Source: a virus
Taxonomy: Duplodnaviria; Caudoviricetes
Reading direction: 5' to 3' (one strand)
DNA: 36,382 nt
Virus record (IMG/VR): IMGVR_UViG_3300037991_005016
Coordinates: 1 to 36,382 of that record
A model generated the notes under the pieces. The model saw only the letters and a list, made by a program, of their open reading frames with translations. It ran no database searches and was not told the DNA's origin. The position numbers and the translations under genes are program-made. Shown in pieces: positions 2,567 to 29,986 of the stretch (position 1 is the first letter of the stretch; each line of letters opens with the position of its first letter).

Positions 2567-2785
2567 TTAATGCCCCCAAATATCTTTAGCCCTCTCTATA
2601 ATCCAACCCATTATATTAATGTCAAAGACTCCCATTATATTACCAACTAAAAAAGCGGATAGTGCTATACAAGAACCCCAAAAATACATTTTCATTTTAA
2701 TAAAAAACATATCTGCTGAATGCGCCCTACTTTGATTATACACATAGTCGGACTCACTAAAGCCCATTATGTCTCCAAAGACCAA
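2567..2785 (-). CDS. Small membrane protein (1 TM plus amphipathic helix)
   Basis: 72 aa, TTG start after GGTTGTGA; hydrophobic MYFWGSCIALSAFLVGNIMGVF. Confidence 0.7.
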   Translation of the reverse strand: MVFGDIMGFSESDYVYNQSRAHSADMFFIKMKMYFWGSCIALSAFLVGNIMGVFDINIMGWIIERAKDIWGH

Positions 2786-2796
2786 TTAATCACAAC

Positions 2797-3213
2797 CTAT
2801 TGTTGTATAGTTGCTAGGAACTCATTACTGATAGTGTTGTCTTCAAAGGTAGCGGTAGGTTCTTCCGCTACTACATTGTTTCTCCAACTATCTCTTCTAG
2901 CCGTTCCAAATTGCCTCATGCTTTCTTGAAGTTTAGCCTTGATTTGTTCTTCTCTTTGTAGTCTTTGGAAGTGGTTTTCTATCTGTCTATCCAACAATCT
3001 AATTTCTATCTTGTCATTGAGTGACAAGTCGAATAGTGCTTTCATAACCATTATTCCACCTACTGTAATAAGACCAAATAAAACAGAATGTGCTAATGCT
3101 CCATATGGGAAGTTTAATCCATATGCGGAGTAAAAATATACATTTGCTCCGCTAACTGTTCCGACAAATAAAATTGTCATAATCAATCTTGTATCTTGAC
3201 TTAGTGCTGCCAT
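2797..3213 (-). CDS. Membrane protein with 2 TM helices and a coiled coil
   Basis: 138 aa; hydrophobic LIMTILFVGTVSGANVYFY and ALAHSVLFGLITVGGIMVM followed by RLLDRQIENHFQRLQREEQIKAKLQE. Confidence 0.75.
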   Translation of the reverse strand: MAALSQDTRLIMTILFVGTVSGANVYFYSAYGLNFPYGALAHSVLFGLITVGGIMVMKALFDLSLNDKIEIRLLDRQIENHFQRLQREEQIKAKLQESMRQFGTARRDSWRNNVVAEEPTATFEDNTISNEFLATIQQ

Positions 3214-4580: not shown

Positions 4581-5918
4581 TTACTGTATGTTTGTTATCT
4601 TTCCTTGACCCTTGAAGAAGGAACATCCGACTTCACCAATTGTTCGATACAAAGCCCTGTTACCTAGAGTTCCGACACCGAATGGGTTTCCATTAGCGAT
4701 ACCATCCTCAAAGTATTGTGTTGGCTTCATAACCGATAGCCACAAATGGTCTGTATCAAGGAATAGTAAATCACTTAGTTTTGTTGAAGCACTACCTGTT
4801 TGGCACATGTCCTTAACAGGAATTAGTGGAATATCATAGTATGTTGCTACTCTAAATCCAACTTCTTGTCCTTTAACTCCTCTAACACCGTTTACGGTAG
4901 GAACAACTTCTTTTCTATCCATAAATCTTTCTTGGCTTTGTAACAAGTCAGCAAGTGCTTGAATAGTATCGTAGCCTGTTAGAATAACCTTTGGAGAACC
5001 ACCGGCTAGTCTTAGGTTTCTAATCATATCATTGAGTCTTGTTAGCGTTAGTGAACGAACATCACCGGAAGCATAACCACTGCCAAAGTCTATTTCTGCA
5101 TCAAGGAAAGAGGCTGCGGTAAATCTTTCACTACCGTAAATCTTTCCTAAAGCGTTAGAAGCGGAAGTAGTATCAGTTGCGATAACTCCACCATCAATTG
5201 CTAGAAGTTCTGCTCTTGAGGTAATAACCTTGTTTAAAGAAGTATAGTTGTGTCCGATATTTGGCATAGCGGATGATTCACCATAATGCTCTAGTGGCAT
5301 AACCAACATTTTATTTTGAACTTCTGCGTGATGCTTCCCCATATCTTCTCTCATTTGCGCTCTAATGTCACCAATTCCATCATCGATTTGAGCCATTTCC
5401 ATAGCAAGTTCGCTAAAGTCAAATTGATGTGCAACGACTTTAGGACTCATGTTGAGTTGTGCATATGTTGGAGCAATTGGGCCTAGTCCGTCTTGTGCAG
5501 TAGAAAGTGCAGCGTTTTCAGGAACACCACCAATCATATCTGCTCTTGGACTATCCGAACCTAACTCTGCTAAGTTTTCTGTTCCGCTTGCATCAACAGT
5601 AAACAAATTACCGCTTCCACCGGCAGGTCTTGACTTTAGAACTCTCCATCCACTAGAAGAATATGGTCTTTTTGAAATCATTGAAAGAGCATTAACTTCT
5701 CTATTCAACATAGACCATACTTTCTGTCCGTAAACAATATTGTATAGTGCTGATACATCACTAACGGCACTACCGGAAAATGCCGGAGAACCATCGTGTC
5801 CTGTATGTATTCCACCTATTGCTCCGGCTTGCTTTAACAAAGCATTACCGGCAGGTAAATTGTTTATTCCATATGTGCTTGCTTCTAAATCTGCGATTGT
5901 ATTAATATATCCACTCAT
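4581..5918 (-). CDS. Major capsid protein (HK97 fold, halovirus/magrovirus type)
   Basis: 445 aa directly downstream of protease/scaffold; GGAGG RBS; segments YGQKVWSMLN, GGSPKVILTG, VATYYDIPLIP, LLFLDTDHL, QGKITNIQ fit archaeal tailed-virus MCPs. Confidence 0.85.
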   Translation of the reverse strand: MSGYINTIADLEASTYGINNLPAGNALLKQAGAIGGIHTGHDGSPAFSGSAVSDVSALYNIVYGQKVWSMLNREVNALSMISKRPYSSSGWRVLKSRPAGGSGNLFTVDASGTENLAELGSDSPRADMIGGVPENAALSTAQDGLGPIAPTYAQLNMSPKVVAHQFDFSELAMEMAQIDDGIGDIRAQMREDMGKHHAEVQNKMLVMPLEHYGESSAMPNIGHNYTSLNKVITSRAELLAIDGGVIATDTTSASNALGKIYGSERFTAASFLDAEIDFGSGYASGDVRSLTLTRLNDMIRNLRLAGGSPKVILTGYDTIQALADLLQSQERFMDRKEVVPTVNGVRGVKGQEVGFRVATYYDIPLIPVKDMCQTGSASTKLSDLLFLDTDHLWLSVMKPTQYFEDGIANGNPFGVGTLGNRALYRTIGEVGCSFFKGQGKITNIQ

Positions 5919-5919: not shown

Positions 5920-7173
5920 TTAAATTCCTCCTACCATTTTGTGAATGTCCGACCAATCCATGTCAGCCATCTCTTCCATACTTGGGAGTTTAATTGCGGA
6001 TTCTTCTTGTGCCTTTAGAATAGTCTCTTTTTCAGCAGTCAAAGATTTCCTTAGTTGTGTAAATTCATTCTTAAGAGAAGCAATCTCGCTTTGTGCATCA
6101 TAGTTTTGCTTGGCGATAACATTCTCTCTTGTAGAAACTTCTCTAGCGAATCTTGCTTCAAAGGACTTCTTTAGGTTGTCGTAAGCAAGTGCTTCAAGTT
6201 GTTCTTGTCGGAAAGCCTCGTAAGCCTTTTCGATGTTAGCGTTTGACAAATCAAGAGTATCAAACTCTCCATTGTTAAATGCTTTAACAACCGGCATATC
6301 GGAAGCAGTTGGCTTACCGTTATTAATAACGATACGGTCAGCAGGTTCGCCAATTTGGTTTCCTGCACCATCAAGAGTTCTTAAGTAAGCCTTTGCTTCT
6401 TCATCTTGATACTCGGCCATTTCCTCTTCATCCGCCATTTCTTCATCTTCCTTGTCCATATCCATGTCTTCTTCTTCATCCGCCATTTCATAGTTTCCTC
6501 TTTCCATGTCGTCGGTCATTTCCATGTGGTCTTTGCTATGGCCTTTTTCATCCATCTCTTCTTCTTTACGAAGCGTATTTACTTCTTCTAACAAAGTATC
6601 TAACTCTGCTAGTGCTTTTTCTAGTTTATTACTCATAGTTTTTTCACCTGTTTTATCTTGTTTCAAAATATCAAACCTCGCTTCGGGGTTAATTCCTTTT
6701 TCGCATATAGTAATTTCATGCAACTCTAACTTGCTGATTTCATTGTACTCTCCCAAGTTTTCATTACTTTTCTTTACTTTTTGGAGGGCTTGACCTCCTA
6801 TGCTAAAAGACCTTAACGACCCTTTGCGAATATTACGACCTACTTCTTTGGCCTTTTCTATATCATCTCGTAGTTTAATTACCACAAAAAAACCTACATC
6901 ATCTACTTCGGATTTCCAAAGTCTTCCTGTTTTGTCTCTATAAGAATCTACTACTTCTCCTACTTGAACATTAGAGTGATTTGTCATTACATTCCTAAAT
7001 TTAGAATCTTGCATAAATTTAGTGACTGCTTCATTAAGTGCCTTTAGTGTGATTAAGTCATTTTGCTTATCAACAATTTCAATACTAGCATATCCGCCAA
7101 TCATCAAATCATCACTGCGACTTTTAATAATGGAGAATCCATCATTTCTAGTTGCTAAGACTGCCGACGACAT
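5920..7173 (-). CDS. Prohead protease fused to scaffold protein
   Basis: N-domain IGGYAS-VDKQND, catalytic-type NH and SFSIGG, EITICEKGINPEA (HK97-type prohead protease); acidic coiled-coil C-half; start set at ATG 7173 (MSSAV) since a TATA-like box overlaps the longer ORF start. Confidence 0.88.
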   Translation of the reverse strand: MSSAVLATRNDGFSIIKSRSDDLMIGGYASIEIVDKQNDLITLKALNEAVTKFMQDSKFRNVMTNHSNVQVGEVVDSYRDKTGRLWKSEVDDVGFFVVIKLRDDIEKAKEVGRNIRKGSLRSFSIGGQALQKVKKSNENLGEYNEISKLELHEITICEKGINPEARFDILKQDKTGEKTMSNKLEKALAELDTLLEEVNTLRKEEEMDEKGHSKDHMEMTDDMERGNYEMADEEEDMDMDKEDEEMADEEEMAEYQDEEAKAYLRTLDGAGNQIGEPADRIVINNGKPTASDMPVVKAFNNGEFDTLDLSNANIEKAYEAFRQEQLEALAYDNLKKSFEARFAREVSTRENVIAKQNYDAQSEIASLKNEFTQLRKSLTAEKETILKAQEESAIKLPSMEEMADMDWSDIHKMVGGI

Positions 7174-7200
7174 TACGCTCAAAGGAAAAAAATTTCCTTC

Positions 7201-7211
7201 TAATATATAAT
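7201..7211 (-). promoter_or_regulatory. Putative archaeal TATA box for protease/capsid operon
   Basis: Minus strand ATTATATATTA about 28-38 nt upstream of ATG 7173 in one of few intergenic gaps; no RBS before the ATG (leaderless-like spacing); 7-bp inverted repeat AAGGAAA/TTTCCTT at 7182-7199. Confidence 0.5.
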
Positions 7212-7232
7212 ACACACGGTTATTTTAAACGA

Positions 7233-9782
7233 TTAGTCTTCTTTTGGTGGTAATTTAAGACTACTAAACTTATCTTCATAAATATTCCACAATCCTTTAT
7301 CACTATCAGTATCAGCAGGTTTCTGTTCATAGCCTGTCCATGCCAACCACATTCTTTTTCCTTTAACTTCAAGCATTCTAACATGAAGTTTAGTTTCAAA
7401 TTTATTACCATCTAAGAAATATTCATGGTAGCCTTCTTTTTGAACACCTAATTTAACATCTCCACTATCAATCAGTTTACGCTTTGAAATATTCTTAGCA
7501 ACAATAGCAGGGAATTTACCTGCTTTTCCAAATAATTCAAAAATATCATCTTTAGAATCAAGTCTAATCATCCAATTAATGCTTTCATCACCTAACTTCA
7601 TTACTAAATTTAGATTATCATCTTCCCTAAGATATAATTTAAATTCTCCTGTTCTATACTTTTCCGGTGTTTTGTATTCTTTTTTTATGGTGTCTAGCAT
7701 TATTTTATCATTTTCAGCAAAGAGTTTCTTTGTTTTAGCATCAAAAGATATACCATCTCTATTCTCAAACCAATCCTTTACCCTAGTTAATTTACTATCT
7801 AATATATCTTGATAAATATCTTTATGATTCTTAACTAAAAAGTTGTGGACTTCTTTAGGAGTCTTTGCTCCTTTTTGTTTTAAGTAATTAAATATAGCAA
7901 CTGTAAGTTTAGATTGTTTTGTTTTCATTATTTCTTCCGCTTGATTTTTCCATAGGTCTAAATCTATAAGGGCATTTTTAGCCATTAGATTATCTTGCTC
8001 AAAACCATAAATAGTAAAACCATCCATGTCTCCTTTGATTATAATATTAGCCTCGCCGTGTATGTGGTCTGTAATGACTATTCCTTTTTCTACTTCTTCG
8101 ACATTATAGTTTAATGATTTATCAGTATCTTTTACTAGCATTTGTAAAGATACTAATTTGTCCGGTGTTTCGGATTCAGCAATTTCATTTATTTTTGCCG
8201 AATAAACAACAGGCTTTCCTTTAACTTCCTTTACCTTATCTATTGAAACTCTAACAATATCTCCAACATCGGCTGAAACTTGAGTATTAGTGGCATTACC
8301 AACATTAAGATAATTTTTACCTTCTATCTTTTCATCTCCTTCTTCTACCGGCCCTGCTCCTAACTTGTAAGAATAGTTAGAACCGCTTTTCTTTTTATCA
8401 AGAACAATCAAGTCTAATTCTACAAAAGGCTTCCATCTAATCCACTTTGGATTTTTCTTAGTTCCTAAGAAGTATGTTGAAGTCGCATCTTTAATCATAA
8501 CTCCTTCGGCAGTAGGCATTTCCATAATCTTCTTAGAATATTCTTCAACATCTTTTAGACTATCCGCTACTCTAGTATCTTTTTTAGATGGGAATGTTAA
8601 TGCTTCACTAGAATGAATAGAATAATTGTTAAACATTATTTGCATTCTGTTTTGTAAAGTATCTTCCATTAGGTTTTCTTCATTATGCCTCATAATATCA
8701 AAGACATGTATTCTAGGAGTTCCTTCTTTTTTACCCGCTAAATATTCTACTGCGTCTTTTCTTTTCAATGAATCTTCACCGTCAAATAAAACTAAAGAAG
8801 CATCTAGTATGCAATCTCCAAAATGTTTTTTCTTTAGTTCTTCAATCGCTTCTTTACATTTGCTAGATATATCTTTGCCTGTATAATCATAAACTTTTAT
8901 GTTTTTATCTATCTTATGGAGTTGTATTCTAAAACCATCATATTTTTCTTGAATGTAAAACTCTCCTGTAAATCCTTTGAGTTCATCCATGTCTTCTATT
9001 GTGAATATTCTATACATAGGTTTGTTGGGAATAATAAAATCGCTTTGTGCTTTTTCTTTTTCGGATTTCTTTTCTTTGAGAATAGTTTTCTTATCTTCAC
9101 CTTTATCCTCTTTGGCCTTCGCTTCATCTAATTCAGTATCTATGTCTTCTAGTTCCGCCCAATCCTGTTTAGTATTCTTAGATAAGAATATTAATTCTAG
9201 CATATTCATAGCGGCTTTTACTTTTGTTTCTACTTTCTTGGAGTCTTTACCATCACCATAATGTTCTATGATGTAAAGTGCAACATCATCAACTTCTAAA
9301 TCTAATCCTGTTAAACCGTCTGTAATATCATCGGGCTTCATATCTTTAATCGAATATGCTTCTTTTGGTAGTGCCTTATCATCTTCTCTAATAGCATAGT
9401 GAACAAACTTAATCATAAGTTCGGGTGATTCTAATAATGCTTCTAATACATTACCTTTGAATTTTTTAGCGAAAGGGTCGCTAACTTCATCGGAAGAATA
9501 TCTTAGTGCTTTGATTGCCTCATACAACTTTTCAGCATTGTTAGTGCTAACATCGGAAACATCATTTGATTCTAATAAGTCTTCATCAATATAATCCTTA
9601 AGTTCATTTGAAAGAGCATCGGTCATTTCATATGCTTCTTTGATTTTATTTACTGCGTTTCTCCATTTAGAACCGTATTCCTTTGGGTCGGTTCTTGCTG
9701 AAAGATAAGCGACTCTCGTTCTTTCAAAGAGTCTTAGAATATCTGTGGATATTGACTTATCCTTCTCAATAAGGAGAGGCAT
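7233..9782 (-). CDS. lig: ATP-dependent DNA ligase-like protein with N- and C-terminal extensions
   Basis: Motif I EKYDG-RIQLH, IIIa HVFDIM, IV EGVMIK, V KWIRWK, then OB-fold (ELDLIVL...YKLGAG); motif III is atypical (LDASL). Confidence 0.82.
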   Translation of the reverse strand: MPLLIEKDKSISTDILRLFERTRVAYLSARTDPKEYGSKWRNAVNKIKEAYEMTDALSNELKDYIDEDLLESNDVSDVSTNNAEKLYEAIKALRYSSDEVSDPFAKKFKGNVLEALLESPELMIKFVHYAIREDDKALPKEAYSIKDMKPDDITDGLTGLDLEVDDVALYIIEHYGDGKDSKKVETKVKAAMNMLELIFLSKNTKQDWAELEDIDTELDEAKAKEDKGEDKKTILKEKKSEKEKAQSDFIIPNKPMYRIFTIEDMDELKGFTGEFYIQEKYDGFRIQLHKIDKNIKVYDYTGKDISSKCKEAIEELKKKHFGDCILDASLVLFDGEDSLKRKDAVEYLAGKKEGTPRIHVFDIMRHNEENLMEDTLQNRMQIMFNNYSIHSSEALTFPSKKDTRVADSLKDVEEYSKKIMEMPTAEGVMIKDATSTYFLGTKKNPKWIRWKPFVELDLIVLDKKKSGSNYSYKLGAGPVEEGDEKIEGKNYLNVGNATNTQVSADVGDIVRVSIDKVKEVKGKPVVYSAKINEIAESETPDKLVSLQMLVKDTDKSLNYNVEEVEKGIVITDHIHGEANIIIKGDMDGFTIYGFEQDNLMAKNALIDLDLWKNQAEEIMKTKQSKLTVAIFNYLKQKGAKTPKEVHNFLVKNHKDIYQDILDSKLTRVKDWFENRDGISFDAKTKKLFAENDKIMLDTIKKEYKTPEKYRTGEFKLYLREDDNLNLVMKLGDESINWMIRLDSKDDIFELFGKAGKFPAIVAKNISKRKLIDSGDVKLGVQKEGYHEYFLDGNKFETKLHVRMLEVKGKRMWLAWTGYEQKPADTDSDKGLWNIYEDKFSSLKLPPKED

Positions 9783-9788
9783 AAAACA

Positions 9789-10343
9789 TCACTCAAAATT
9801 TCTAGTGTTGTCGCCTTTAGCACCCGCTAGCGATAAATATTTACTATCTGTTCTATCAATATTGTCGGTAAATTTGCTGCCTTTTCCATATTTTGCTGCA
9901 TCTAAAAGTTTTTCATCTATTTTATCTATTTCTTCTTGTGCATTTTTAATCATTCTTTTCAAAGTATCAACATCATTTTTAGATTCTGCATCTTTTAATG
10001 CACGATTAATATTTCTTAAACTTTGCTCCACTAACATTCTAACTAACGAATCTTGATGTGTACCACCCATAGATTTTCTAGGTGGCCCTTGAAATTTTGC
10101 TTTCTTTAGACTCTCACCTGCTAAACCATACCCTTCTTTCTTTTGAGTTTGATTAGTAATCTTAGAAGCATCTTGCACCTTTGGCCTCTTAACCTTCTCA
10201 ACTTCGGGGTCTGTATCTATTTCCAATACTTGAGTTGGCTCAATGTTCTTTCTTTTCTTTGCGCTTAATTCTTCTTTAGCCTTTCTTGCTTTTTCAATAG
10301 CAAGGCTAACTATTCTTTCTTCCTTTGTTACTCTTTCCGGCAT
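9789..10343 (-). CDS. Hypothetical charged protein
   Basis: 184 aa, start coupled to upstream stop (TAATG). Confidence 0.7.
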   Translation of the reverse strand: MPERVTKEERIVSLAIEKARKAKEELSAKKRKNIEPTQVLEIDTDPEVEKVKRPKVQDASKITNQTQKKEGYGLAGESLKKAKFQGPPRKSMGGTHQDSLVRMLVEQSLRNINRALKDAESKNDVDTLKRMIKNAQEEIDKIDEKLLDAAKYGKGSKFTDNIDRTDSKYLSLAGAKGDNTRNFE

Positions 10344-10591
10344 TACTGACCACCTACATTTTCTACCATCTTATGAATATCTTTCCAGTCCATATTTCCA
10401 ACATCTTTCAATGGTGAACCACCGATAGTTCCGTGATTCATCTTAGGAGTTGGACTATCAACAACAACAAAACCGGACTTCATTAGTAAGTTATCGTCAT
10501 TGTAAACTGCTTTCTCTAAACTTTCTATCTTAGCACTAAGGGCTTTAATTATTTCAAGTAGTTCTTGATTAATTGTATTTTCTTCACTCAT
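10343..10591 (-). CDS. Small coiled-coil protein with scaffold-like C-terminus
   Basis: 82 aa; ends MDWKDIHKMVENVGGQ, matching scaffold end MDWSDIHKMVGGI. Confidence 0.78.
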   Translation of the reverse strand: MSEENTINQELLEIIKALSAKIESLEKAVYNDDNLLMKSGFVVVDSPTPKMNHGTIGGSPLKDVGNMDWKDIHKMVENVGGQ

Positions 10592-10947
10592 CTCTTTTCC
10601 TCCTTTGGTGGATATACTAAATCTCTTAACTGTCTGTAAAGCAACTCATAGTCCTTTCGGAGTTCCGTAGCCGAAGCGACTATATCTATATTCCGTTCAT
10701 CCATAGACTTCATTTTCTTTGTAAGTTTCTTATCGGACTTAACCAACTCTACATCTTTTAATGCACTAATTAATTCGCCTAACTTAGTAAAGTCTTGTCC
10801 AAAAAATTCAGTTGGTTGGGCTGATTGTAATACTTTCTTTAGACGCTTAGTTTGTTTCTTATCTAATGTGTCTAATATATTCTTCTTTACTTTTTCTTCT
10901 TTCTTTATGGTAAATTCTTTACCTTCCTCGTAGTAATCCCATGTCAT
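10588..10947 (-). CDS. Hypothetical helical protein
   Basis: 119 aa, ATGA-type overlaps at both ends. Confidence 0.75.
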   Translation of the reverse strand: MTWDYYEEGKEFTIKKEEKVKKNILDTLDKKQTKRLKKVLQSAQPTEFFGQDFTKLGELISALKDVELVKSDKKLTKKMKSMDERNIDIVASATELRKDYELLYRQLRDLVYPPKEEKR

Positions 10948-13900
10948 TTTTCTTCCTCTCCTTGTTTTTTAGGTATAGTTGGTATTGGTCTTGCCTCTCT
11001 ATCCGCCCTTTCTTCTGTCTTAGGTGTAAAAGATTCCGATAGTTTTTCGATGTTTCTGTCATGTATGTCTTTAAGTTTTTGTAAGTTTTTAATATATGTA
11101 TCGTAAACATCCGTAAAGTCCATTATTCTAGATAATTCTTTACCTAAAACTTCATCTGCTAGAATTTTTTCAAAGTCTCTTCCTTCTTTATCTGATTTTA
11201 TACCTATTTTAATGTTAAATTCGCTCAAGTCCACTAATTTATTTTTAGTTTTGAATGTTTTTAACAAATCTTCAAATTCATCTTCCAACTGTTCTATCAT
11301 AGCCGTTGAGATTTTATATTGTTCTTGGCGTGTTTTGGGCTTTCCATCTTTTAGATACTGTTCTCTTTCTTTAGGGTCTGTTGGAACTAAAGATTCTATT
11401 TCCTTTTTGTTACTTTTAAAATGTTGAAGGAAAGCCTTCTCAATAGGTTTTATTAAGTCTTCATCGGAAATATCCGTTTCCATTAATTCTTCTATGCTAT
11501 CAACCTTTTTTTGATTTGCTAGTGGTGTAAATGCTCCCATAACTATTCTTTCTCCATCTTGGGGAGAGATAGGTATTGGCGAAATATGTCTAAATATTTT
11601 AGTAGTGAAAATTTTCTTTTGTTTTCTATCCGCTTCAATGCGTTCTTTACTAGTTTTGATTGGTTTTTTTTCCGCTAATAATTCTTCAAGTTTAGGAGAA
11701 CTATAATCGGGATTTTCTTTTCTAGCCTCGGTCTGTTTTTCTCTTTCGGTTTTAATCTTATCATCTATTTCTTTTAGTTTAGCACTCAACTCATCTAATT
11801 CTTTTTGTTTTTCATCAGTTAAAGAGTCTACTTTAGGTTCATCTTCTTTGCTATCTAAGAATCTATTCATTCTTTGAATAACTGCAATAGAATAATCCCT
11901 TGCTATTTCTTCTAAATTAAAAGCATCTGTTTCTAACGCTTTTTGTTTTTGTGTTATGTATGTTGATTGTAGTTTTTTAACCTCTTCGACAAAATCATCT
12001 ATTGCCTTAAAGAACTGCTTTCCTTCTTGTCTATTATCGAGTATAGAGAATAAAGCATCTAATTGTTCTTTTACTTTATTTCTTGGTTTATTTAAATCTA
12101 AAAGTTCTTCTGCGGTCTTATCGCTTCTTTCGGATTCTTTTTCATATCCGCCTTCTTCATATTTTTTTGCTTTCTTTTCCATATAAGCCAATTGCATATC
12201 CCAATATAACCTTACAAATTCAACGGGGTTCTCTTTATAGGCTTCAATGTCTTCAAGCCCTACAAAAGATTCCCCTAATGGGTTAATTTTTTCATTTATA
12301 AACTGCTTTCCTGTGATTAAAGGAACATTAAATACATTGTAGTATTTTTCACTAGTGACTCCTTCTACTTTCATTTTATCATCTTTAATATCAAGAGTAT
12401 CATTTTCAGCATTCAGTCTTTTGTCATTCATAACAAGATTTGAATCCTCTCTAGTATCAGCACTTCTAGACATTCTATGTAAAAACTTCATTACCGCATT
12501 AGATAATTTATTTTCATCTCTAATCAAATCCCTCACAATAAAAGCAGGTATTGGTTTTAGTAGTGCTTTCTGTTTTCTTCTCTTCTCAACAAAGCCTTCT
12601 AGTGCTTTTAGTGCATTAGACAATTCCTTTCTTGCTTCCGAAGTTTCTTTGTCTTGTTCTAAAATACTTCCTCCTGTCATCTTAGAGTAGGCCCTTTGTA
12701 GTGCATTATATATTCTTTCATTGGATATAATTTCTCTAATTTCATTAACTGATTTTTCTATTGAAGCATATGTTTTATCGTTTGGAGAAAGCGGATTCTC
12801 TCTTTTTCTCAAGAAAAATTTTCTTTGTACTATAACTACATCGTAAAATTTCCAAGCATCTTTTCCTAACTTATCTCCTACAACTTCCGCTTTGTTCAAT
12901 TGATTTCTTAATTTCTTTTCTCGCTCTATCTTTTCTCGTTGAATCTTTAATCTTATTTGTGTTTCTTCCTCCTTACTTCTTTTAGTATATCCTGTAAGCA
13001 TATTTGTTAGTTTTTCTATTTTTTTAGTTAGTTCCTCTTCTAACTTTTGGTATTCTCGCATTGACCCTTTGAATCCTTTTAATTTACCTCTAATAGATTT
13101 TATTTCTTCTGTTAGTTTTTCCATCCTAGTATCTTTCTGTTTGTCACCTTTAGATTTTTTAGGTTTCTTTTCTATAGCATATCCCTTAACTACTGAAAGT
13201 AAATCTCTTATCAATTTAGAGCCGTATTTTTTATTATCAAATACCTTTTTTGCTTCTAATAATAATTTACTATCACTAGTTGTCGGTTGCCTAACAATTT
13301 GCTTCATGTTTTTTAGGCTTCTATTTAGAGAAGAATAGGCAGCGTTTGTAGACCTAGTGCCTTTTTCTTTCTCAGTGGTTAATAAATCTTTAAACATCTT
13401 TTGGTTTTTACTCGACAATAATTTTTTTAGTTTCTTAATTTTTCTATAGTTAAGAGATTCCCCACCTACTTTATCTTGTAGCAAACTTAAGTAGTTAAAT
13501 ACTCTTCTATATGCTTCTGTTTTCAAAGCCTTTCCATCACCCAAAGGTATTTTCTTTCCTTTAACACTGTCTTTGATACCTTTTGATTTTGCATCAGTCT
13601 CTAAGAAGCGTTGTAGTTTTTCATCACTATATTTTCCTTTAATGTAAGCAGTTAGTGTTTTATCTTCTAATGGCATAGTGCTTAGTTTGTCTAAATACTC
13701 TTTGACTTCTTTTTCTTCAAGTAGTTCTTTAAAGTCTCTTAGGAACTTAGCATCTTTATTTTTATCAACTCTTAATACTTGTAAAGGACTAACATTTTCA
13801 GTTCTCCTAGCAATACTTTGAAAATACTTAGTTTCTGTTCCTTCTTTGTCGCCTTTTTTCTCCTTTACACCTACTTTGCTCTCTAATTCCACTACTCTAT

Positions 13901-15014
13901 CTTTTAGTTTCTTCAATTGCTCATCTGTAAGTTTATATTGCACCATCCATATAGGATTTCCTTTTTTGTCTTTAGGTAATTTTTCATCTATTGATTTATG
14001 TTGGTTTTTAATGAATTTTTTAGTTGCTTCTACATCTTTTTTGTATTTCTCATATAACTCATTTAACTTTGTGGTAATTTCTTTTTGGGGAATATCTTCA
14101 TTCCTAGTTACATTAACATCCTTTTCATATTTTTCAAAAAGTCTTTTGAATTTACCATTCGCCCTTTTTACCCTAGTTTGGTAGGCTTCTATCATCTTTC
14201 CTTCCTTTGTATTTTTAGGATGCGCTCTAAGCATTCCTCTTTGTTCTTCTCTCATTAGAATAGAAAGGGCAACCTCAAATCTATCTAATGCGCTTCTTAG
14301 TAATACTACTTGCCTAGATGCGTTGGAGTCTTTTAAATTCATTTTTAGTGGCTCTAAAGGAAACAACAAGTTTTTTCTTGCATCTTCAATTGCTTTTTTA
14401 TAATTGGATTTATCGAAACTATCTACTAAGTTCTTTGTGCTTTCTAATTCTGCTCTATCTTTTCGATATTGGTTTTTCCTAAGTTGTAATTTCCTATCAG
14501 CCGTATATTCTTTCCAAACTAATTTTATTTCATCAATAGTCCATTTCCAACCATAGATTTCTAAAGGCTCTCCTCTAGCAATAAAATCCTTGTATTGTTT
14601 TTCCCTAATATCATAGGATATTTTTTCTTTTTGTTCTCTAGTCAATTCGCCCTTTTTCTCGGCTTGTTGAATTGCCTCTTTTACTTTATCTCCAAAATCT
14701 TCACTAAAACTACTAACTAATCGGGCTTTAGTTTTATCTCCATCTTTATTTTTTAGTTTTTGTCTCTCGTCTGCGCTTTCTTTTTCTTTTGTTTGTTCTA
14801 ATGCTTCTCTTTCAGCAAGTTCAAACATGCCTTCACTATCTAGTATTTCATCTCCTAGTTTATCATCTGCTCTTGTTTTATCGTCAAGGTAAAATTCATC
14901 ATCTTCACCATCTGCTTTTCTTATTGTATGTTGATTTTCTACTTCTTCAATCAAACACTTCAACAAAAAATGAAGGTCGTCTTCTTTATTGTGTAAGATG
15001 GCCTTCATAAACAT
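10944..15014 (-). CDS. Very large Lys/Glu-rich helical protein, possibly internal head protein
   Basis: 1356 aa uninterrupted ORF, GAGGCGA RBS, no recognisable catalytic motif, between portal and ligase/protease. Confidence 0.75.
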   Translation of the reverse strand: MFMKAILHNKEDDLHFLLKCLIEEVENQHTIRKADGEDDEFYLDDKTRADDKLGDEILDSEGMFELAEREALEQTKEKESADERQKLKNKDGDKTKARLVSSFSEDFGDKVKEAIQQAEKKGELTREQKEKISYDIREKQYKDFIARGEPLEIYGWKWTIDEIKLVWKEYTADRKLQLRKNQYRKDRAELESTKNLVDSFDKSNYKKAIEDARKNLLFPLEPLKMNLKDSNASRQVVLLRSALDRFEVALSILMREEQRGMLRAHPKNTKEGKMIEAYQTRVKRANGKFKRLFEKYEKDVNVTRNEDIPQKEITTKLNELYEKYKKDVEATKKFIKNQHKSIDEKLPKDKKGNPIWMVQYKLTDEQLKKLKDRVVELESKVGVKEKKGDKEGTETKYFQSIARRTENVSPLQVLRVDKNKDAKFLRDFKELLEEKEVKEYLDKLSTMPLEDKTLTAYIKGKYSDEKLQRFLETDAKSKGIKDSVKGKKIPLGDGKALKTEAYRRVFNYLSLLQDKVGGESLNYRKIKKLKKLLSSKNQKMFKDLLTTEKEKGTRSTNAAYSSLNRSLKNMKQIVRQPTTSDSKLLLEAKKVFDNKKYGSKLIRDLLSVVKGYAIEKKPKKSKGDKQKDTRMEKLTEEIKSIRGKLKGFKGSMREYQKLEEELTKKIEKLTNMLTGYTKRSKEEETQIRLKIQREKIEREKKLRNQLNKAEVVGDKLGKDAWKFYDVVIVQRKFFLRKRENPLSPNDKTYASIEKSVNEIREIISNERIYNALQRAYSKMTGGSILEQDKETSEARKELSNALKALEGFVEKRRKQKALLKPIPAFIVRDLIRDENKLSNAVMKFLHRMSRSADTREDSNLVMNDKRLNAENDTLDIKDDKMKVEGVTSEKYYNVFNVPLITGKQFINEKINPLGESFVGLEDIEAYKENPVEFVRLYWDMQLAYMEKKAKKYEEGGYEKESERSDKTAEELLDLNKPRNKVKEQLDALFSILDNRQEGKQFFKAIDDFVEEVKKLQSTYITQKQKALETDAFNLEEIARDYSIAVIQRMNRFLDSKEDEPKVDSLTDEKQKELDELSAKLKEIDDKIKTEREKQTEARKENPDYSSPKLEELLAEKKPIKTSKERIEADRKQKKIFTTKIFRHISPIPISPQDGERIVMGAFTPLANQKKVDSIEELMETDISDEDLIKPIEKAFLQHFKSNKKEIESLVPTDPKEREQYLKDGKPKTRQEQYKISTAMIEQLEDEFEDLLKTFKTKNKLVDLSEFNIKIGIKSDKEGRDFEKILADEVLGKELSRIMDFTDVYDTYIKNLQKLKDIHDRNIEKLSESFTPKTEERADREARPIPTIPKKQGEEEK

Positions 15015-15023: not shown

Positions 15024-15584
15024 TCAAAATGGAATATTCTCTTTTTTACCTCTCCTTTTTTGTGGGGGTAAAATAACATCGGGAACATCATTAGATGCTC
15101 TTGTTGCTTTATGAGTTGTGTCCGGTGGCAATCCACCAACGGAAAAATCTCTATTTTTTGTTGTTCTTCTAGTTTCATTAGCATTTTGTGTTCTAACTTT
15201 TGCTAATTCTTTCTTTAGTCTTCTTTCTCTTTGTTTTAAATCTTCTTTCATAATAATACCTTTTTTAAGTTGTGATTTTTTTATTATCTTTGCTTCTTTT
15301 GCGGCGATTTCAATTAATTTATCTATGCCAATTGATTCTGCGGTTTCAATTAAACTTCTATTTTCTTTGGGTTTTTTATGTGCTTCTGTGACTTCTTTAA
15401 TAAACTTAGGGTTTTCCTTAACTTTTTCTATTAGTTTTCTTTTACTTATCTCTAGTTCTACTTTTCGCCCCAACCTTCTACCATACATTTCTATTAAAGC
15501 ACCAACTGCAAATGTTGCTAAACCACCCGCTAATTTAACCATATCGGGGTTGTCAAATATTTTTTCTATTTTATCTTCTGTCAT
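15024..15584 (-). CDS. Hypothetical basic protein
   Basis: 186 aa, TAATG coupling to the portal stop. Confidence 0.7.
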   Translation of the reverse strand: MTEDKIEKIFDNPDMVKLAGGLATFAVGALIEMYGRRLGRKVELEISKRKLIEKVKENPKFIKEVTEAHKKPKENRSLIETAESIGIDKLIEIAAKEAKIIKKSQLKKGIIMKEDLKQRERRLKKELAKVRTQNANETRRTTKNRDFSVGGLPPDTTHKATRASNDVPDVILPPQKRRGKKENIPF

Positions 15585-17227
15585 TAACCTGTCCTCCTCT
15601 CACTTCTTCTATCTACATTTTGATTTCCTGCATCTTCGGGTAATCCACTCATTCTTTTATCCGGCCCTCTACTCATAGAAGGTTTATTTCTAGTAGCGGG
15701 TGGATTTTCTTGTGGCTTACTACCGCCACTTTCTGCAAACATTCTTGTTTGTTCATCTAAGTCTCTTTGGTCTAAATTAGAACCTGCTAGTGGGTCTTTT
15801 TCTACGGGTTTTCCATCTTCTCCCATTTGTTGTTCCGGTTTTGGTTCGGGCTTCTTGTAGGTAAAATTACCATCTTCATCCATGTCTACTTCAAAACCTA
15901 AGTTCTTTATTGAGGCTGCGATATTAACTTCAATCTCTTTCTTTCTTAATCCTGCAATCTCGTCTTCTTCTTCACTTGGAGGTAACTTTAACTTCCAATC
16001 TGTAATGCCAAATTGTCTAACAAGATAAGGAAATACATACTCATTGTAAACATTCTGTGCCATTTGAACGGCCCTATTGGTGACTAATATTTGCATACCT
16101 TCATTATTTAATCCACCACTTGTAGTATTATCAGCCATGAAGACTTTACTTACTCCATAGAATGCTGATATTCTATCTCTTAAATCATCTTTAACAGAAA
16201 TATAATCCATTTCTTTTAGGCTATCCATGAACTTAATCCATTCAACTGCGCCTTTTCCACCTTCTGCTTCTATTCCCATTACCGGAATAAAATGAGGGTC
16301 TGCTTCCATCTTTTCTTTTACTCCTCTCCAAAAGGCTCTCATTGAATCCATGTTTCTAGTTTGAACTGCTAATAATCCTCTTGGCATTCTACTCTTAGTG
16401 TAGGCTGAATTGACATAGTTTTCCATAGCAATTAAAGTCATAATATGATTGTAAAGTGTAATTACAGGAGAAAAACCGTAGAGTCTTGAAGGACTATACT
16501 TACTAAAATGTAATACTTCTCCTTCTAAGAAATATTGTTCATCTCCTTTTGCTCTATTTACATAATGAATTGGCATAAGAGGAGAACCGCATGTTTCGCA
16601 ATTATCGTGTGGTTCTGTTGAAATAACATCTCTATGATGAACACAAGTAAATCCTTTGTTTCCTTTTACTCCGTCTTCATCAGCATAAATAAACATAGTT
16701 ACAGGGTCGCCTCGATATATTTCTTTAATACGGTGCATTCTAATTTTACCATTTCCGTCTAAGAAATATTCTTTTACCATTACAATGTAAGCATCATCCA
16801 TAATATTCAAATCATCTTCCAATTCTTTTAGAACATCAATAAACAATTGCTCGGAGGAATTTACATATCCTTCTAAAAACTTTTCAGCATACTGTAACTG
16901 TTTTATATCGGGATTTCTTAAATCAGTAGAACCACACCTAGAACATTCTTGAACAGGTCTAGTATGTTCTTTTCCACAAGATTTACAAGAAGCCTCAAAT
17001 GCTTTTTCCCAAGTATATCCTCTTCTGTAAACTTCTTGTTTAAGTTGAGTTATGCAAGTTCTAACTATAACTGATTGTTGAACCATAGAGTAGATGATGG
17101 GAGCAGTCATCATATAGTTGTTTTGCCTTTCTTGAATACCCATATTGTAGATATTTCTATCGGCAGGTTTTGGTGTAGTGCGCCTAAAAAGATTTGTGAA
17201 AGAGAACCGCCTTCGTTTTTCTGCCAT
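15584..17227 (-). CDS. Portal protein with two Zn-ribbon insertions
   Basis: 547 aa; DLNIMDDAYI, EVLHF..YSPSRLYGFSPV, RMPRGLL, ISAFYGVSKVFM are portal motifs; CKSC/CSRC and CVHH/CETC inserts. Confidence 0.85.
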   Translation of the reverse strand: MAEKRRRFSFTNLFRRTTPKPADRNIYNMGIQERQNNYMMTAPIIYSMVQQSVIVRTCITQLKQEVYRRGYTWEKAFEASCKSCGKEHTRPVQECSRCGSTDLRNPDIKQLQYAEKFLEGYVNSSEQLFIDVLKELEDDLNIMDDAYIVMVKEYFLDGNGKIRMHRIKEIYRGDPVTMFIYADEDGVKGNKGFTCVHHRDVISTEPHDNCETCGSPLMPIHYVNRAKGDEQYFLEGEVLHFSKYSPSRLYGFSPVITLYNHIMTLIAMENYVNSAYTKSRMPRGLLAVQTRNMDSMRAFWRGVKEKMEADPHFIPVMGIEAEGGKGAVEWIKFMDSLKEMDYISVKDDLRDRISAFYGVSKVFMADNTTSGGLNNEGMQILVTNRAVQMAQNVYNEYVFPYLVRQFGITDWKLKLPPSEEEDEIAGLRKKEIEVNIAASIKNLGFEVDMDEDGNFTYKKPEPKPEQQMGEDGKPVEKDPLAGSNLDQRDLDEQTRMFAESGGSKPQENPPATRNKPSMSRGPDKRMSGLPEDAGNQNVDRRSERRTG

Positions 17228-17264: not shown

Positions 17265-17480
17265 TTATAGAATCTTCGCAAATGTTTTCCTCAATACACT
17301 TCTCCAAGTTCCCTTTCTGTATGGTTTTCTTTCATACTCGCTAGGGTCTTTATTGGCGTATAATGCCTTCATGTACTTTTTTGCTTTTGACTTTGACATA
17401 CCATATTTATTTTTTCTTTTTTTAGTATCTGTATTGACTACATAGTAGCCATCTTCTCCAACTCTCAAATCGTAAGGCAT
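17265..17480 (-). CDS. Small basic protein with C-terminal W motif
   Basis: 71 aa; MPY...YYVVN...KAKKYMKALYAN pattern common in phage small proteins; ends KGTWRSVLRK. Confidence 0.65.
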   Translation of the reverse strand: MPYDLRVGEDGYYVVNTDTKKRKNKYGMSKSKAKKYMKALYANKDPSEYERKPYRKGTWRSVLRKTFAKIL

Positions 17481-17481
17481 A

Positions 17482-18027
17482 CTACCACTTTACTTTATTA
17501 GCCCAATACGCTGCGCTAGTTCTACCTCTTTTGATATTTTTTCTATGACGACTCTTGAATGATTTTCTTTTTGCCTTCATTCTTTTGCTTTCACCTTTTT
17601 TTGGTTTACCTGCTACACTTGCTCCTTGTTCTCCGAAGCGAATAGTCTTGACTTTATCTCCGTCTTTAACAACTACAACATGTGATTTCTTAGGGTGTTT
17701 AGGAGTTCTCTTAGGTTTTCCAAAGCCACTAACACCGGCTCTCTTTAAAGCAGGGTGTTTCTTTCTTTTAACTATATCAAACCAATGTGCCTTCTGCATT
17801 ACTGTTCCTGTGCTTCTCATAGGAGGAAGGGCGGAAATCCCTCTTGAAGCAATTGCTCTTTTTGCTCGGTTAAGGTCTTCTTGAGTTATGGGTCTATTAT
17901 TGAATTTATAAATTGTTTTAATTTCTTGCTTAAGTCTTTTTCCGTATTGTTGTAGGGCTTGGTTATACGCAAATTTGACATTATCATCTTGAAATTTAAT
18001 ACCAAACTTTTCAATATCTTGCGTCAT
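17482..18027 (-). CDS. Two-part protein; C-terminal basic domain widespread in phages
   Basis: 181 aa; internal QKAHWFDIVK precedes KPKRTPKHPKKSHVV...IRFGEQG...SFKSRH...SAAYWANKVKW. Confidence 0.72.
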   Translation of the reverse strand: MTQDIEKFGIKFQDDNVKFAYNQALQQYGKRLKQEIKTIYKFNNRPITQEDLNRAKRAIASRGISALPPMRSTGTVMQKAHWFDIVKRKKHPALKRAGVSGFGKPKRTPKHPKKSHVVVVKDGDKVKTIRFGEQGASVAGKPKKGESKRMKAKRKSFKSRHRKNIKRGRTSAAYWANKVKW

Positions 18028-18425
18028 TGTTTACCCCTCATTTGATTTTCTTTAGATGTTTTATCATCATCAATCGGGCCACCTTTAGCCCAAGTATAGC
18101 AAGTTCTTGCTGAATGACATTTAAAATCGTGCATCCAACAGTAACCTAAACGCCCATCTTCATCAGTAGTTAATGGCATGCAATCATCCATTCTAGGTGA
18201 TATATCGAATGCAATACAATTACTACAATTAGATTTCTTTGCTACTTCGGGAGTAGTCTTCCATCTTTTAGCATACTCTTCCCAATACTTTTTATCATTA
18301 AGATTAAGTGGCCCATATCTAATATTAGGGTTTTTAACTGCGTTATCTCTATTCTTGGTATTAACCATTAGGTCTTGTGTAGCCAAAGGACACGCAAGTT
18401 GCTTAAGAATAATATGCCAAGTCAT
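18024..18425 (-). CDS. W-tagged Cys-rich metal-binding protein (HiPIP-like Cys spacing)
   Basis: Start moved to ATG 18425 (MTWHIILKQ); CSNC...GYCWMHDFKCHSARTCYTW. Confidence 0.7.
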   Translation of the reverse strand: MTWHIILKQLACPLATQDLMVNTKNRDNAVKNPNIRYGPLNLNDKKYWEEYAKRWKTTPEVAKKSNCSNCIAFDISPRMDDCMPLTTDEDGRLGYCWMHDFKCHSARTCYTWAKGGPIDDDKTSKENQMRGKQ

Positions 18426-18429
18426 AGTA

Positions 18430-18786
18430 TCATCTCGGTCTATGGGTGTAAATGTCTCCATCTTTGTGCATGAATATAACTTTCTTTCTTTTCATAGCAT
18501 TAAGAACTCTCTTTAATTCTTTAGGAGGACATATTGCTTTTAGATTTTTCATACCTAATGCTCCTCCTTCTTTTTTAATTTCAGCAAGTATTTCTTTTTC
18601 TATTTGAGCATCAGTTTTCATGGCTTTCTTTTCATCTCTAAGCATAGCAAAATCTTTTCCTGTTATTTTACCATCTTTATCCTTATCAATTCTTTTTTGG
18701 TTTCCATAAAGCATTTTTTCATCTTCTTTATGAGTTCCACAATGGGCTTTTTCTTCTTCTGTTTTTAATATATCTTTCCAATTCAT
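18430..18786 (-). CDS. W-tagged protein with an EF-hand-like loop and probable winged helix
   Basis: MNWKDILKT; DKDKDGKITGKDF is a canonical DxDxDG loop; C-terminal helix-helix-beta hairpin. Confidence 0.72.
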   Translation of the reverse strand: MNWKDILKTEEEKAHCGTHKEDEKMLYGNQKRIDKDKDGKITGKDFAMLRDEKKAMKTDAQIEKEILAEIKKEGGALGMKNLKAICPPKELKRVLNAMKRKKVIFMHKDGDIYTHRPR

Positions 18787-19133
18787 CTTGTAAATCCCCT
18801 TCCCCTACTTTTTGTTTTTTGCTTACTCGCTTGCTTTCTTTGTTTAGCGTAAGTATGTGCCGTTTTTAGCCTTTTCTTTGTTTTAGGGTCTTTAGCATTT
18901 TTAACGGCGGCTCTTAATCTTTGTTCCACTAAGTTAATTATTTGTGATTGTCTTTTATGAGATTTAGATTTAAACGCACTACTGCTAAATGTTTCTTTAA
19001 CATCTTTAACGGTTCTAAATTTTACAGGAACAGTATCTTTTGGATTTTCATCTGTATATAATCTTCTTGCTGAACCTTTAGGTTTTTTACCCGTTCCTTT
19101 TTTCGGGTCAGCCTTCAAGATATTTTGCCACAT
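18783..19133 (-). CDS. W-tagged basic protein
   Basis: Start moved to ATG 19133 (MWQNILKA); PKKGTGKKPKGSARRLYTDENPKDTV motif familiar from marine phage ORFs. Confidence 0.72.
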   Translation of the reverse strand: MWQNILKADPKKGTGKKPKGSARRLYTDENPKDTVPVKFRTVKDVKETFSSSAFKSKSHKRQSQIINLVEQRLRAAVKNAKDPKTKKRLKTAHTYAKQRKQASKQKTKSRGRGFTR

Positions 19134-19138
19134 TGTAA

Positions 19139-19423
19139 TCACTTTTGACTAAACTTCTTTCCTGTCGGCACATGTTGAACGCCTTTTTTACGGCCTTTTC
19201 TTTTCTTAGCGTCTTGATACCTTAGTGTTTTTTTATCTGTTCTTTGATAGGTCGCTCTAGGCATATATCTTCCTTTAGTTTTTGATTTAGGTTTCTTTCC
19301 TTTTGCTTTCGCTCTATGTTGTTCGGCACTTCCCCAATCTTCCTGTGTCCATTGGGTCAAATCCTGTTGCCTTTTTGACTTGGCTTTTAGGATATTCCAC
19401 CATTTAATTACGATAACCGCCAC
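19139..19423 (-). CDS. W-tagged basic protein (start uncertain)
   Basis: KWWNILKA...QQDLTQWTQEDWG...GRYMPRA; only in-frame start is GTG overlapping the upstream gene. Confidence 0.65.
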   Translation of the reverse strand: MAVIVIKWWNILKAKSKRQQDLTQWTQEDWGSAEQHRAKAKGKKPKSKTKGRYMPRATYQRTDKKTLRYQDAKKRKGRKKGVQHVPTGKKFSQK

Positions 19424-19610
19424 CTGCCCGTTTGTAGGCTTGGGCTAACATCTGTGCTTTTCTAGCCGACCATTGACCTTTAGCCCCGCCTTTATTTCCT
19501 CTTTTTATTCTATTGAAGATTTTTCTACGCATAGTAGGTTGAGTATAATTACCTGCTTGATTTACAGTAGATTTTTTCTTTTTCTTTTTCAATACTTCTT
19601 CCCATTTCAT
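19404..19610 (-). CDS. W-tagged small basic protein (DUF5872-like, from memory)
   Basis: MKWEEVLKK; NYTQPTMR...GGAKGQWSARKAQMLAQAYKRAGGGY. Confidence 0.72.
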   Translation of the reverse strand: MKWEEVLKKKKKKSTVNQAGNYTQPTMRRKIFNRIKRGNKGGAKGQWSARKAQMLAQAYKRAGGGYRN

Positions 19611-19616
19611 AATTCA

Positions 19617-19871
19617 TCACTCTCTAATATGTCTAGGTAATTCTTTTCTCATCCTATCTAATTCTTTTTCTGTTTCATTTATTATGTCTTTTTGAATATT
19701 TTTAATAAGTTCTCTTGCCTGTTCTAACGGAAAGCCTGTTTCTTTATTCATTTTGATGGCTTGTTCCTCAATATCATCATATAAGTTATCTAGTAATTTT
19801 TCTAGTCTTTCTATAAGATTTAACATTTCACCATAAGATTGTTCATCTTTTAAAATAGATTTCCACTTCAT
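19617..19871 (-). CDS. W-tagged helical protein
   Basis: 84 aa, MKWKSILKD, coiled-coil composition. Confidence 0.72.
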   Translation of the reverse strand: MKWKSILKDEQSYGEMLNLIERLEKLLDNLYDDIEEQAIKMNKETGFPLEQARELIKNIQKDIINETEKELDRMRKELPRHIRE

Positions 19872-20011
19872 TTCTTATCCCTCGCTTTTTCCCAACAACT
19901 ATCACAATACCCATAGGGGTGAACTTCTTTTGCAGTATAGCATCTTCCACAATATCTAATTTCTAATTTTCTTTTTTCAACTATCCATTCTTCTATTTCT
20001 TGTTTATTCAT
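19868..20011 (-). CDS. Small Zn-finger protein (47 aa), absent from ORF track
   Basis: Manual translation MNKQEIEEWIVEKRKLEIRYCGRCYTAKEVHPYGYCDSCWEKARDKK; two CxxC; fills the gap with ATGA overlaps at both ends. Confidence 0.7.
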   Translation of the reverse strand: MNKQEIEEWIVEKRKLEIRYCGRCYTAKEVHPYGYCDSCWEKARDKK

Positions 20012-21363: not shown

Positions 21364-21374
21364 TTTACATCACC

Positions 21375-22805: not shown

Positions 22806-23113
22806 TTTGCCGCCTCTTTTATTTTAGCCAATGCCCTCTTTAGTTTCATATCTTGTGTTTTATTATCTAAAGCAGTTGCCGCTTCTTGTATGCGTTGATT
22901 ACTATAATAGAAAAAAAGAACATCTCTTTGTATTTTCTTTGGGGTCAGTTTACTATTAATTATCTTTAATATTAAATTTTTAAAAAGTTTTTCAAAGGAT
23001 TCTGCCGCTTGTTCATGTTTATCTTTTATATTAAATAAAGATAATTTTGGTGATTTATATTGAGAGGCTTCTCCATAACGCCAATCAAATTTTTTAACTT
23101 CATCAAACCACAT
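22802..23113 (-). CDS. W-tagged hypothetical protein
   Basis: 103 aa, MWFDEVKK. Confidence 0.72.
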   Translation of the reverse strand: MWFDEVKKFDWRYGEASQYKSPKLSLFNIKDKHEQAAESFEKLFKNLILKIINSKLTPKKIQRDVLFFYYSNQRIQEAATALDNKTQDMKLKRALAKIKEAAK

Positions 23114-23116
23114 TAA

Positions 23117-23761: not shown

Positions 23762-23770
23762 TAACTCCAC

Positions 23771-29713: not shown

Positions 29714-29986
29714 TCATATTTCGCCAAGTATTCTTTTTAGTTCAAAAGCAAATTTTTCATCATCTATAGAAAACTCTTTTTGTTTATCCATCCTATAGAG
29801 TTGATTTTTAATCCACGCTCTAACAAACTCATCATCAGTCATAGGCTTACTGCCCATTCTATCATAGGTGTCTTTAGCCCCTTCAAGAAACTCCACTCCA
29901 TCACCGAATCTATCATCTATTACTTTAACCAATAGTGCATATTTTTCCGAAGGGAAATCCCTTTTTACTATATCTTTCCAACTCAT
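29714..29986 (-). CDS. W-tagged hypothetical protein
   Basis: 90 aa, MSWKDIVKR. Confidence 0.75.
   Translation of the reverse strand: MSWKDIVKRDFPSEKYALLVKVIDDRFGDGVEFLEGAKDTYDRMGSKPMTDDEFVRAWIKNQLYRMDKQKEFSIDDEKFAFELKRILGEI

Follow-up and report, generated by a model that had tools for sequence, protein, structure and literature searches.

A conserved scaffold tail, a small scaffold-related protein and a putative head-loading tag in a group B-like magrovirus

The protease/scaffold and a separate 82-aa protein of the virus analysed here both have M-D-W-x-D-I-H-K-M-V as their C-terminal end, and the start of this helix recurs as a tag on small proteins of the head module. We suggest that the tag is a portable loading label which mimics the scaffold: an eight-residue unit of handle and cut site would have spread by recombination onto acquired genes, those of bacterial phages among them, and would let dozens of variable proteins dock in the scaffold's coat pocket, with the mini-scaffold and the C-terminal tag variants as surviving intermediates. 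To this reading as a whole we assign a probability of roughly 0.45. An earlier sequence-only reading of this DNA had described the two tails, and both are where it had placed them: ORF 5920-7215 ends MDWSDIHKMVGGI (5923-5961) and ORF 10343-10591 ends MDWKDIHKMVENVGGQ (10346-10393).

The head module and its two scaffold tails

The window, that is, the whole stretch of 36,382 nucleotides that was analysed, carries all its real genes on the minus strand. Family scans of the window place the terminase at 21375-22805 and the portal at 15584-17227. The features around the two tails are (a slash marks a likely cut):

4581-5918, minus strand: major capsid protein (MCP), 445 aa (PHROG 24667, E 3.6e-22; Pfam SU10_MCP; tblastn to HCTV-1/HVTV-1 MCP)
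5832-5918, minus strand: predicted MCP propeptide, residues 1-29, ending at L28-K29
5920-7215, minus strand: prohead protease/scaffold fusion, 431 aa (Pfam Peptidase_S78, 39.7 bits, cut-off 21; PHROG head maturation protease)
6658-7107, minus strand: S78 protease domain, residues 37-186, flanked by the likely cut sites IIK/S (K31) and ILK/Q (K185)
5920-6636, minus strand: predicted scaffold-only product, 238 aa, internal start M194, GGTGA ribosome-binding site upstream
5923-5961, minus strand: scaffold tail, about 18 residues after the likely cut site ILK/A (K401)
7233-9782, minus strand: ATP-dependent ligase-like gene of the structural module (Pfam PF01068; magrovirus A/B hallmark)
10343-10591, minus strand: 82-aa putative mini-scaffold; helix 2-38 (coiled-coil-like), likely LMK/S site at K38, Pro-rich linker, tail helix 69-80
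10346-10393, minus strand: tail of the putative mini-scaffold, sharing its motif with the scaffold tail
10588-10947, minus strand: conserved 119-aa core protein, with a variant W-D-Y-Y opening in the window

A ligase gene among the structural genes is a mark of magrovirus groups A and B (excerpts of PMC5434244), and the window combines this gene with a halovirus-like MCP, as is characteristic of group B (Aoguangviridae-like). Group B is further described by a split PolB, a ribonucleotide reductase, a chaperonin and a genome of 90-100 kb (excerpts of PMC5434244; PMC10768690). These three functions are not found in the window; they are present in its relative G003, a complete genome of 95.9 kb with an MCP 85% identical to the window's, which points to group B. 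In our reading the window holds the head genes of a group B-like magrovirus, an ocean archaeal virus. The nearest cultured MCPs, those of HCTV-1 and HVTV-1, are 25% identical. For the MCP, the presumed partner of the scaffold tail, a PDB sequence search gave nothing significant and the AF2 model reached a pLDDT of only 36.6.

Near the N-terminus of the ligase-like protein (7233-9782, 849 aa) a Trp helix is conserved, reading W-K-D-I-V-K in G004; it may be an internal tag and a hint of packaging. Three large Lys-rich proteins (10944-15014, 24911-27523, 27525-29699) had no Pfam or PHROG family and are candidate ejection or core proteins; the 870-aa protein is kept in 7/7 genomes, the other two had no detectable homologue, and the G003 gene at the position of the 1356-aa protein opens with a tag-like M-S-W-K-A-V-L. 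A small GTPase-like gene (1904-2566), kept in 7/7 genomes, adjoins two membrane-protein genes (including 2567-3213), possibly as an egress module.

The protease/scaffold has what is expected of an S78 prohead protease-scaffold fusion: a Peptidase_S78 domain above the cut-off, an acidic/coiled C-terminal region and a position directly upstream of the MCP gene. According to the alignment its true start is likely M15 at 7173. In 91 of 95 distinct junctions a Met follows within 14 residues of the protease end, and an RBS-like word precedes 75 of these 91 Mets as against 420 of 1387 (30%) other internal Met codons. A nested scaffold-only gene starting at 6636 is thus likely, and its predicted product opens with a heptad-like helix. 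Nested genes, with a protease fused to a scaffold and an internal in-frame start, are familiar from the herpesvirus protease/assembly protein and from lambda C/Nu3. The magrovirus gene resembles them, its internal start being predicted from the sequence alone.

The scaffold and 82-aa tails agree in nine of ten residues (a chance of roughly 2e-10 given the composition) but in only 20 of 27 bases, which argues for conservation at the protein level. We gathered loci from the window's clade and from a sister clade with MCPs 56-64% identical to the window's. Across both, all but one of 118 distinct scaffolds (117) terminate in W-x-[DE]-[IL]-H, the sole exception being ORF L075, which ends early; the His is invariant in all 117 tails, and a profile of the tail retrieved 0 PDB sequence matches. 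The Trp and Ile of the 82-aa protein are invariant in 93/93 sequences, and its His is invariant in the window's clade and present in 24/42 of the sister clade. The conservation in relatives on which the sequence-only reading had staked its proposal is therefore found, with one correction: it had written the motif as WxDIHK, of which W-x-[DE]-[IL]-H is kept and the Lys is not. This Lys follows the His in 67/68 scaffolds of the window's clade and in 0/49 of the sister clade, which have N, T, S, D or A instead. We rejected it as part of the tail motif; the Lys common to tag and tail is partly an accident of the window's clade.

The 82-aa gene occurs in 7/7 complete genomes, and so is a core gene, and in 111/111 loci whose length covers its position (with some contigs counted twice). 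In the AF2 model (mean pLDDT 64) a linker of low confidence joins a long helix at the N-terminus to the helix of the tail. In hhalign its profile matches the last ~45 residues of the scaffold with a probability of 96.8% (E 2.4e-10), with cut site, linker and tail aligned. Given this match and the heptad-like helix of the predicted scaffold-only product, the 82-aa protein looks like a shrunken scaffold paralogue, in keeping with its earlier description as a mini-scaffold. No Pfam or PHROG family was found for it; the PDB profile search gave merely coiled-coil look-alikes (best E 0.035; GCN4 variants at E of at least 0.12) and the ESM Atlas unnamed viral clusters alone. By analogy with the 80alpha proteins discussed below, we consider it probable that it is a second scaffold whose tail binds the coat.

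Distribution of the tags

The tags and tag clusters of the window are the following:

17265-24906, minus strand: portal-to-terminase cluster of small tagged ORFs (TerL and an HNH gene lie within, untagged)
17767-17784, minus strand: internal tag W82-K87, directly before the phrog_7595 domain
18763-18786, minus strand: type N-terminal tag MNWKDILK on ORF 18430-18786
19587-19610, minus strand: tag on the phrog_17747 protein, whose bacterial-phage homologues lack it
29714-36176, minus strand: upstream cluster of small tagged ORFs
32446-32475, minus strand: C-terminal tag variant K-K-S-W-H-E-Y-L-W-G on a 391-aa protein (32443-33618)

The motif W-x-x-[ILV]-[ILVMH]-K is found 24 times in the 51 proteins of the window; 2000 shuffles gave 0.70 on average and at most 5. 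Nineteen of the copies are N-proximal, two are the tails and three are internal; five further ORFs of the window carry looser N-terminal variants, and the 119-aa core protein has a canonical or near-canonical tag in the four sister-clade genomes. Of the N-terminal tags in the seven complete genomes, 84 are encoded on the same strand as the MCP and one on the opposite strand, which holds a similar number of Trp residues, and by position the tags cluster in the head module. The motifs W-L-S-V-M-K within the MCP and W-D-K-I-L-K in an early gene were considered as tags and rejected, as their orthologues drift from the pattern.

The tagged bodies are small, soluble and volatile. A hydrophobic 19-mer is present in 1/84 tagged versus 39/280 untagged proteins, the tagged bodies are small, and 18 of the 24 tagged bodies of the window have no homologue in the seven genomes. 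Three tagged proteins have close marine bacterial-phage homologues which start without the tag (in the records translated), and for this reason the tag seems to be grafted onto acquired genes. Small, very basic proteins (phrog_7595, 14910, 17747) cluster at 17482-19610; the two that were searched are about 55-75% identical to marine bacterial-phage genes (HMO-2011-type, Roseobacter, Methylophilales). This indicates cross-domain gene flow, and the proteins might be DNA-condensing cargo. At 24079-24906 a GNAT acetyltransferase-like domain is followed by an internal tag at W172, and the C-terminal part is a separate gene in G002.

Neighbouring tagged genes share their ribosome-binding site together with the tag as a DNA cassette (six copies of 41 nt at 29964-35914, 71-85% identical), which suggests a route by which the tag spreads. 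One could go further and regard the tag as a by-product of copying ribosome-binding site and first codons for late expression, its likeness to the tail being due to chance. The near-identical DNA of neighbouring genes speaks for this explanation, yet all six Leu codons are used in the tags, the residues hold while synonymous codons vary freely, and the motif is also found internally and at C-termini. The cassette accounts better for the spread of the tag than for its retention, and we regard this explanation as highly improbable.

The 391-aa protein ends in a Trp helix in the window and in the orthologues of 7/7 genomes. In the window and three orthologues of the same clade a Lys-rich site directly precedes the Trp helix and no Lys follows it; the four sister-clade orthologues end in a tag-like hydrophobic-Lys. 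The Lys-before-Trp layout is as predicted for a handle paired with a release site.

The putative cut site and the likeness of tag and tail

The word [ILVM][ILVMR]K[SAQ] is enriched in the protease/scaffold and the MCP. It is found 35 times versus 3.2 expected in seven protease/scaffolds, which are related orthologues and not independent, and 11 times versus 1.9 expected in the MCP. The terminase (TerL, 0 versus 2.1), the portal (4 versus 2.5) and likewise the ligase are not enriched, and the opposite-strand proteins show a slight excess (79 versus 57). As these hydrophobic-hydrophobic-Lys words are enriched in scaffold and MCP and bracket the protease domain, we infer a Lys-directed prohead protease in the virus of the window. 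The MCP propeptide would be removed by cleavage after K29, L28-K29 being invariant in 43/43 aligned MCPs. In HVTV-1 and HCTV-1 the protease/scaffolds and MCP N-termini (L081 17727-21029; L084 17644-21035) contain many hydrophobic-x-Lys-Ser/Ala/Thr words, which suggests Lys-directed maturation in Druskaviridae too.

The hydrophobic-hydrophobic-Lys of the tag, which the sequence-only reading had passed over, matches these putative sites. Given such a protease, the tag is likely bipartite, with W-x-D-I as helix start and handle and a likely cut site behind it. The tag might also be an extended protease substrate signal alone, by which late proteins are activated or timed in the cytoplasm without any head loading. 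That tags end in a likely protease motif would fit, but at MCP K29 and at the sites flanking the protease domain the hydrophobic pair is not preceded by a Trp at a distance of three residues, the C-terminal variants of the window's clade have the Trp without a Lys, and the prohead proteases of T4 act inside the prohead (excerpts of PMC9026906). A signal of this kind is improbable, and we consider it quite probable that the tags are removable head-loading labels.

How closely does the tag copy the tail? Both have [STND]-W-x-[DE]-I, and where the scaffold has its invariant His the tag has L/I-K. His is essentially absent from tags (1/255 and 1/184 start-Trp N-termini, neither of them tag-like), and the scaffold's hydrophobic residues at +6/+7 are not kept (large hydrophobics at +6 in 18/109 and 24/105 tags). 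The Met of the tag is simply the start codon, and [STD]-x-x-[DE] is a generic helix cap. Scored with a profile of 200 tags at the shared positions, the tails rank 4th-36th among the 317-378 other Trp sites per genome and never first; with the L-K positions included they rank 5th-62nd. They thus fall in the top 1-10% of Trp sites and no higher. Ser precedes the Trp in 47/49 scaffolds and 81/102 tags of the sister clade and in 1/68 scaffolds and 19/60 tags of the window's clade, a co-variation that amounts to a single clade split. The Asp of the window-clade scaffolds is rare in tags of the same clade (2/60), and the sister-clade 82-aa protein has Asp more often than Ser (23 versus 14 of 42), so that it follows the Ser shift partly. 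Of the earlier claim that the tag resembles the scaffold C-terminus, the common W-x-D-I start stands, while the missing His and the modest statistical likeness limit it. We regard the mimicry as moderate and the tag as a partial copy. The C-terminal tag variants, which occupy the position of the tail and of which one nearly matches the L283 scaffold tail, appear to bridge tag and tail.

The main rival to docking in the coat pocket is a targeting to the core as in T4. The tags would then bind the scaffold core or the protease/scaffold, only the His-bearing tails would bind coat, and the likeness would reflect ancestry or the shared helix cap. The internal proteins of T4 co-purify with gp22 and join the core (excerpts of PMC9026906 and PMC5694885). 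Moreover, the His and the +6/+7 hydrophobics strictly separate tails from tags, and the tails rank only modestly by the tag profile. Against this stand the C-terminal variants just described and the distant scaffolds, in which the deepest-conserved tail positions are those common to the tags. On balance we hold core targeting to be unlikely.

The evidence from distant relatives, with MCP identities of about 36-39% where measured, is as follows. Judged by eye, a similar helix start ends the scaffolds L148, L149, L151, L152, L283, L286/287, L291, L292 and L293-295; the vir519 scaffold end has a weaker resemblance, and the HVTV-1, HCTV-1, vir335 and L296 scaffolds are without the motif. What persists, again by eye, is the start [STDP]-aromatic-x-x-aliphatic, with H, N, A, Q, D or E at the His position; the deepest-conserved part of the tail is therefore the part common to the tags. 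In vir335 (L082 17739-18365, 18434-19846) two genes that precede the MCP close with helices resembling one another, with G-A-V-C and G-G-A-C; here too a scaffold tail may have been duplicated, though one with its own motif. In L283 (6708-7157, 9523-9918) protease, scaffold and a mini-scaffold-like gene are all separate, the last two with a Trp-His tail. The scaffold gene (131 aa, before the MCP) ends K-S-W-Q-D-I-H-F-M and the 149-aa gene, after the portal, ends D-W-N-E-F-H. The hhalign match of the latter to the mini-scaffold family is weak (probability only 4.5%, pairwise E 0.009), and its homology accordingly rests on tail, position and build.

L283 has no N-terminal tags in the 21 kb seen, and strict N-terminal tags were absent from the eight distant sequence sets scanned, which comprise two 84-kb records at 68-78% completeness and mostly partial others. 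These scans are thin: one alignment query offered no conserved stretch, and P0141 found nothing in the genome contigs. As distant untagged viruses keep the tail, and one of them also its duplicate, the tail is the older of the two, as would be expected if the tag arose from it.

The common handle might instead bind the portal or another head or host partner, with cargo gathering at the portal vertex. The scaffold of P22 reportedly triggers portal ring incorporation, to go by the title of a study, and the mini-scaffold gene sits between the portal and protease genes. However, twelve portal subunits would offer few sites for 6-25 cargo types, and the best-studied duplicated tail, that of SP and CpmB, binds coat (excerpts of PMC5644958). 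A portal partner is thus quite improbable.

Proposed mechanism and comparison with known systems

We suggest the following scheme for docking in the coat pocket. The two tails are conserved homologues, and the 82-aa gene belongs to the core. As in 80alpha SP/CpmB and P22, the tail helix would bind the inner face of the coat, plausibly at the conserved N-terminal arm, and the 82-aa protein would serve as a second, short scaffold that tunes head size or assembly. Head-module proteins carry further copies of the W-x-[DEN]-I start at either terminus or internally, and it has been joined to genes whose bacterial-phage counterparts are without it. These copies would enter the prohead by binding the same pocket, probably with lower affinity. 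The S78 protease would then cut after hydrophobic-hydrophobic-Lys and free the cargo within the head; the freed cargo could serve DNA packing or injection, and the scaffold pieces would leave. The tag would in sum be a docking helix plus release site which works like the capsid-targeting sequence (CTS) of T4 and is probably derived from the scaffold's coat-binding tail. That tag and tail are one docking handle for the prohead interior, with the protease releasing the cargo, seems to us an even bet, and we see the chances as about equal that the tag enters the very coat pocket of the scaffold tail.

If true, archaeal viruses would have their first capsid-targeting sequence, and with it a cargo code that arose through mimicry of the scaffold. 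How tailed viruses choose their cargo proteins is known in detail for few systems, and for T4 the structure of the CTS binding site is not given in the excerpts of PMC9026906, PMC5694885 and PMC3012670. A label traceable to the scaffold tail leads to a precise and testable pocket hypothesis. It would also single out, in each genome of these abundant archaeal viruses of the ocean, 6-25 unannotated genes whose products are likely virion-borne and candidates for counter-defence or DNA packing, and the eight-residue tag could be used to load HK97-type shells. A virus with its own CpmB-like second scaffold would further be relevant to the control of head size. No cargo label derived from a scaffold tail was met among the papers that the literature searches brought up, nor was the tag motif by word search in the main texts of PMC5434244, PMC11706807 and PMC10160649.

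The tag is most readily compared with the CTS of T4. Like the CTS of IPI-III and Alt, it is a short N-terminal peptide on diverse, fast-changing small proteins (excerpts of PMC9026906, PMC5694885 and PMC3012670). The CTS is bipartite, with targeting at residues 4 and 7 and processing at 8 and 10, and the tag would likewise join a targeting half to a prohead-protease site, which in the magrovirus is putative. As described in the excerpts of PMC9026906, the CTS binds the core and not the shell, and gp21 cuts after L/I-X-E. Magrovirus tags end in hydrophobic-hydrophobic-Lys instead and so lack the gp21 motif. In contrast to T4, the magroviruses have 6-25 tagged genes per genome, carry the motif at C-termini too and infect an archaeal host, and in the three sources excerpted the CTS is not described as a copy of a scaffold tail. 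The small accessory core proteins gp67 and gp68, which are cut by the prohead protease and likely have a role in head size, resemble the mini-scaffold in kind; the excerpts of PMC9026906 and PMC5694885 mention no tail common with gp22.

For the 82-aa protein the closest parallel is SaPI CpmB, a dimer of 72 residues whose C-terminus copies that of the 80alpha scaffold (excerpts of PMC5644958). SP and CpmB compete for one site beside the N-arm helix of the coat protein (excerpts of PMC5644958 and PMC5744158). Like CpmB, the 82-aa protein is small and helical and has a scaffold-homologous C-terminus, and the oligomerising N-terminal part of CpmB has its counterpart in a predicted coiled-coil-like N-terminal helix. 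The differences are clear as well. The motif of 80alpha and CpmB is RIIK, whereas magrovirus tails have W-x-D-I-H and no RIIK, and neither the tail profile nor that of the 82-aa protein matched CpmB or SP in PDB searches at E<=10. We thus take the 82-aa protein to be built like CpmB and not to be a member of the CpmB family. CpmB is borne by a satellite and shrinks the capsid of its helper, whereas the 82-aa gene is part of the virus's own core, being present in 7/7 complete genomes; and the mimicry of CpmB is not used to load cargo, unlike the role proposed here for the tags. Each part of the scheme thus has a precedent, the CTS on the one side and SP/CpmB on the other.
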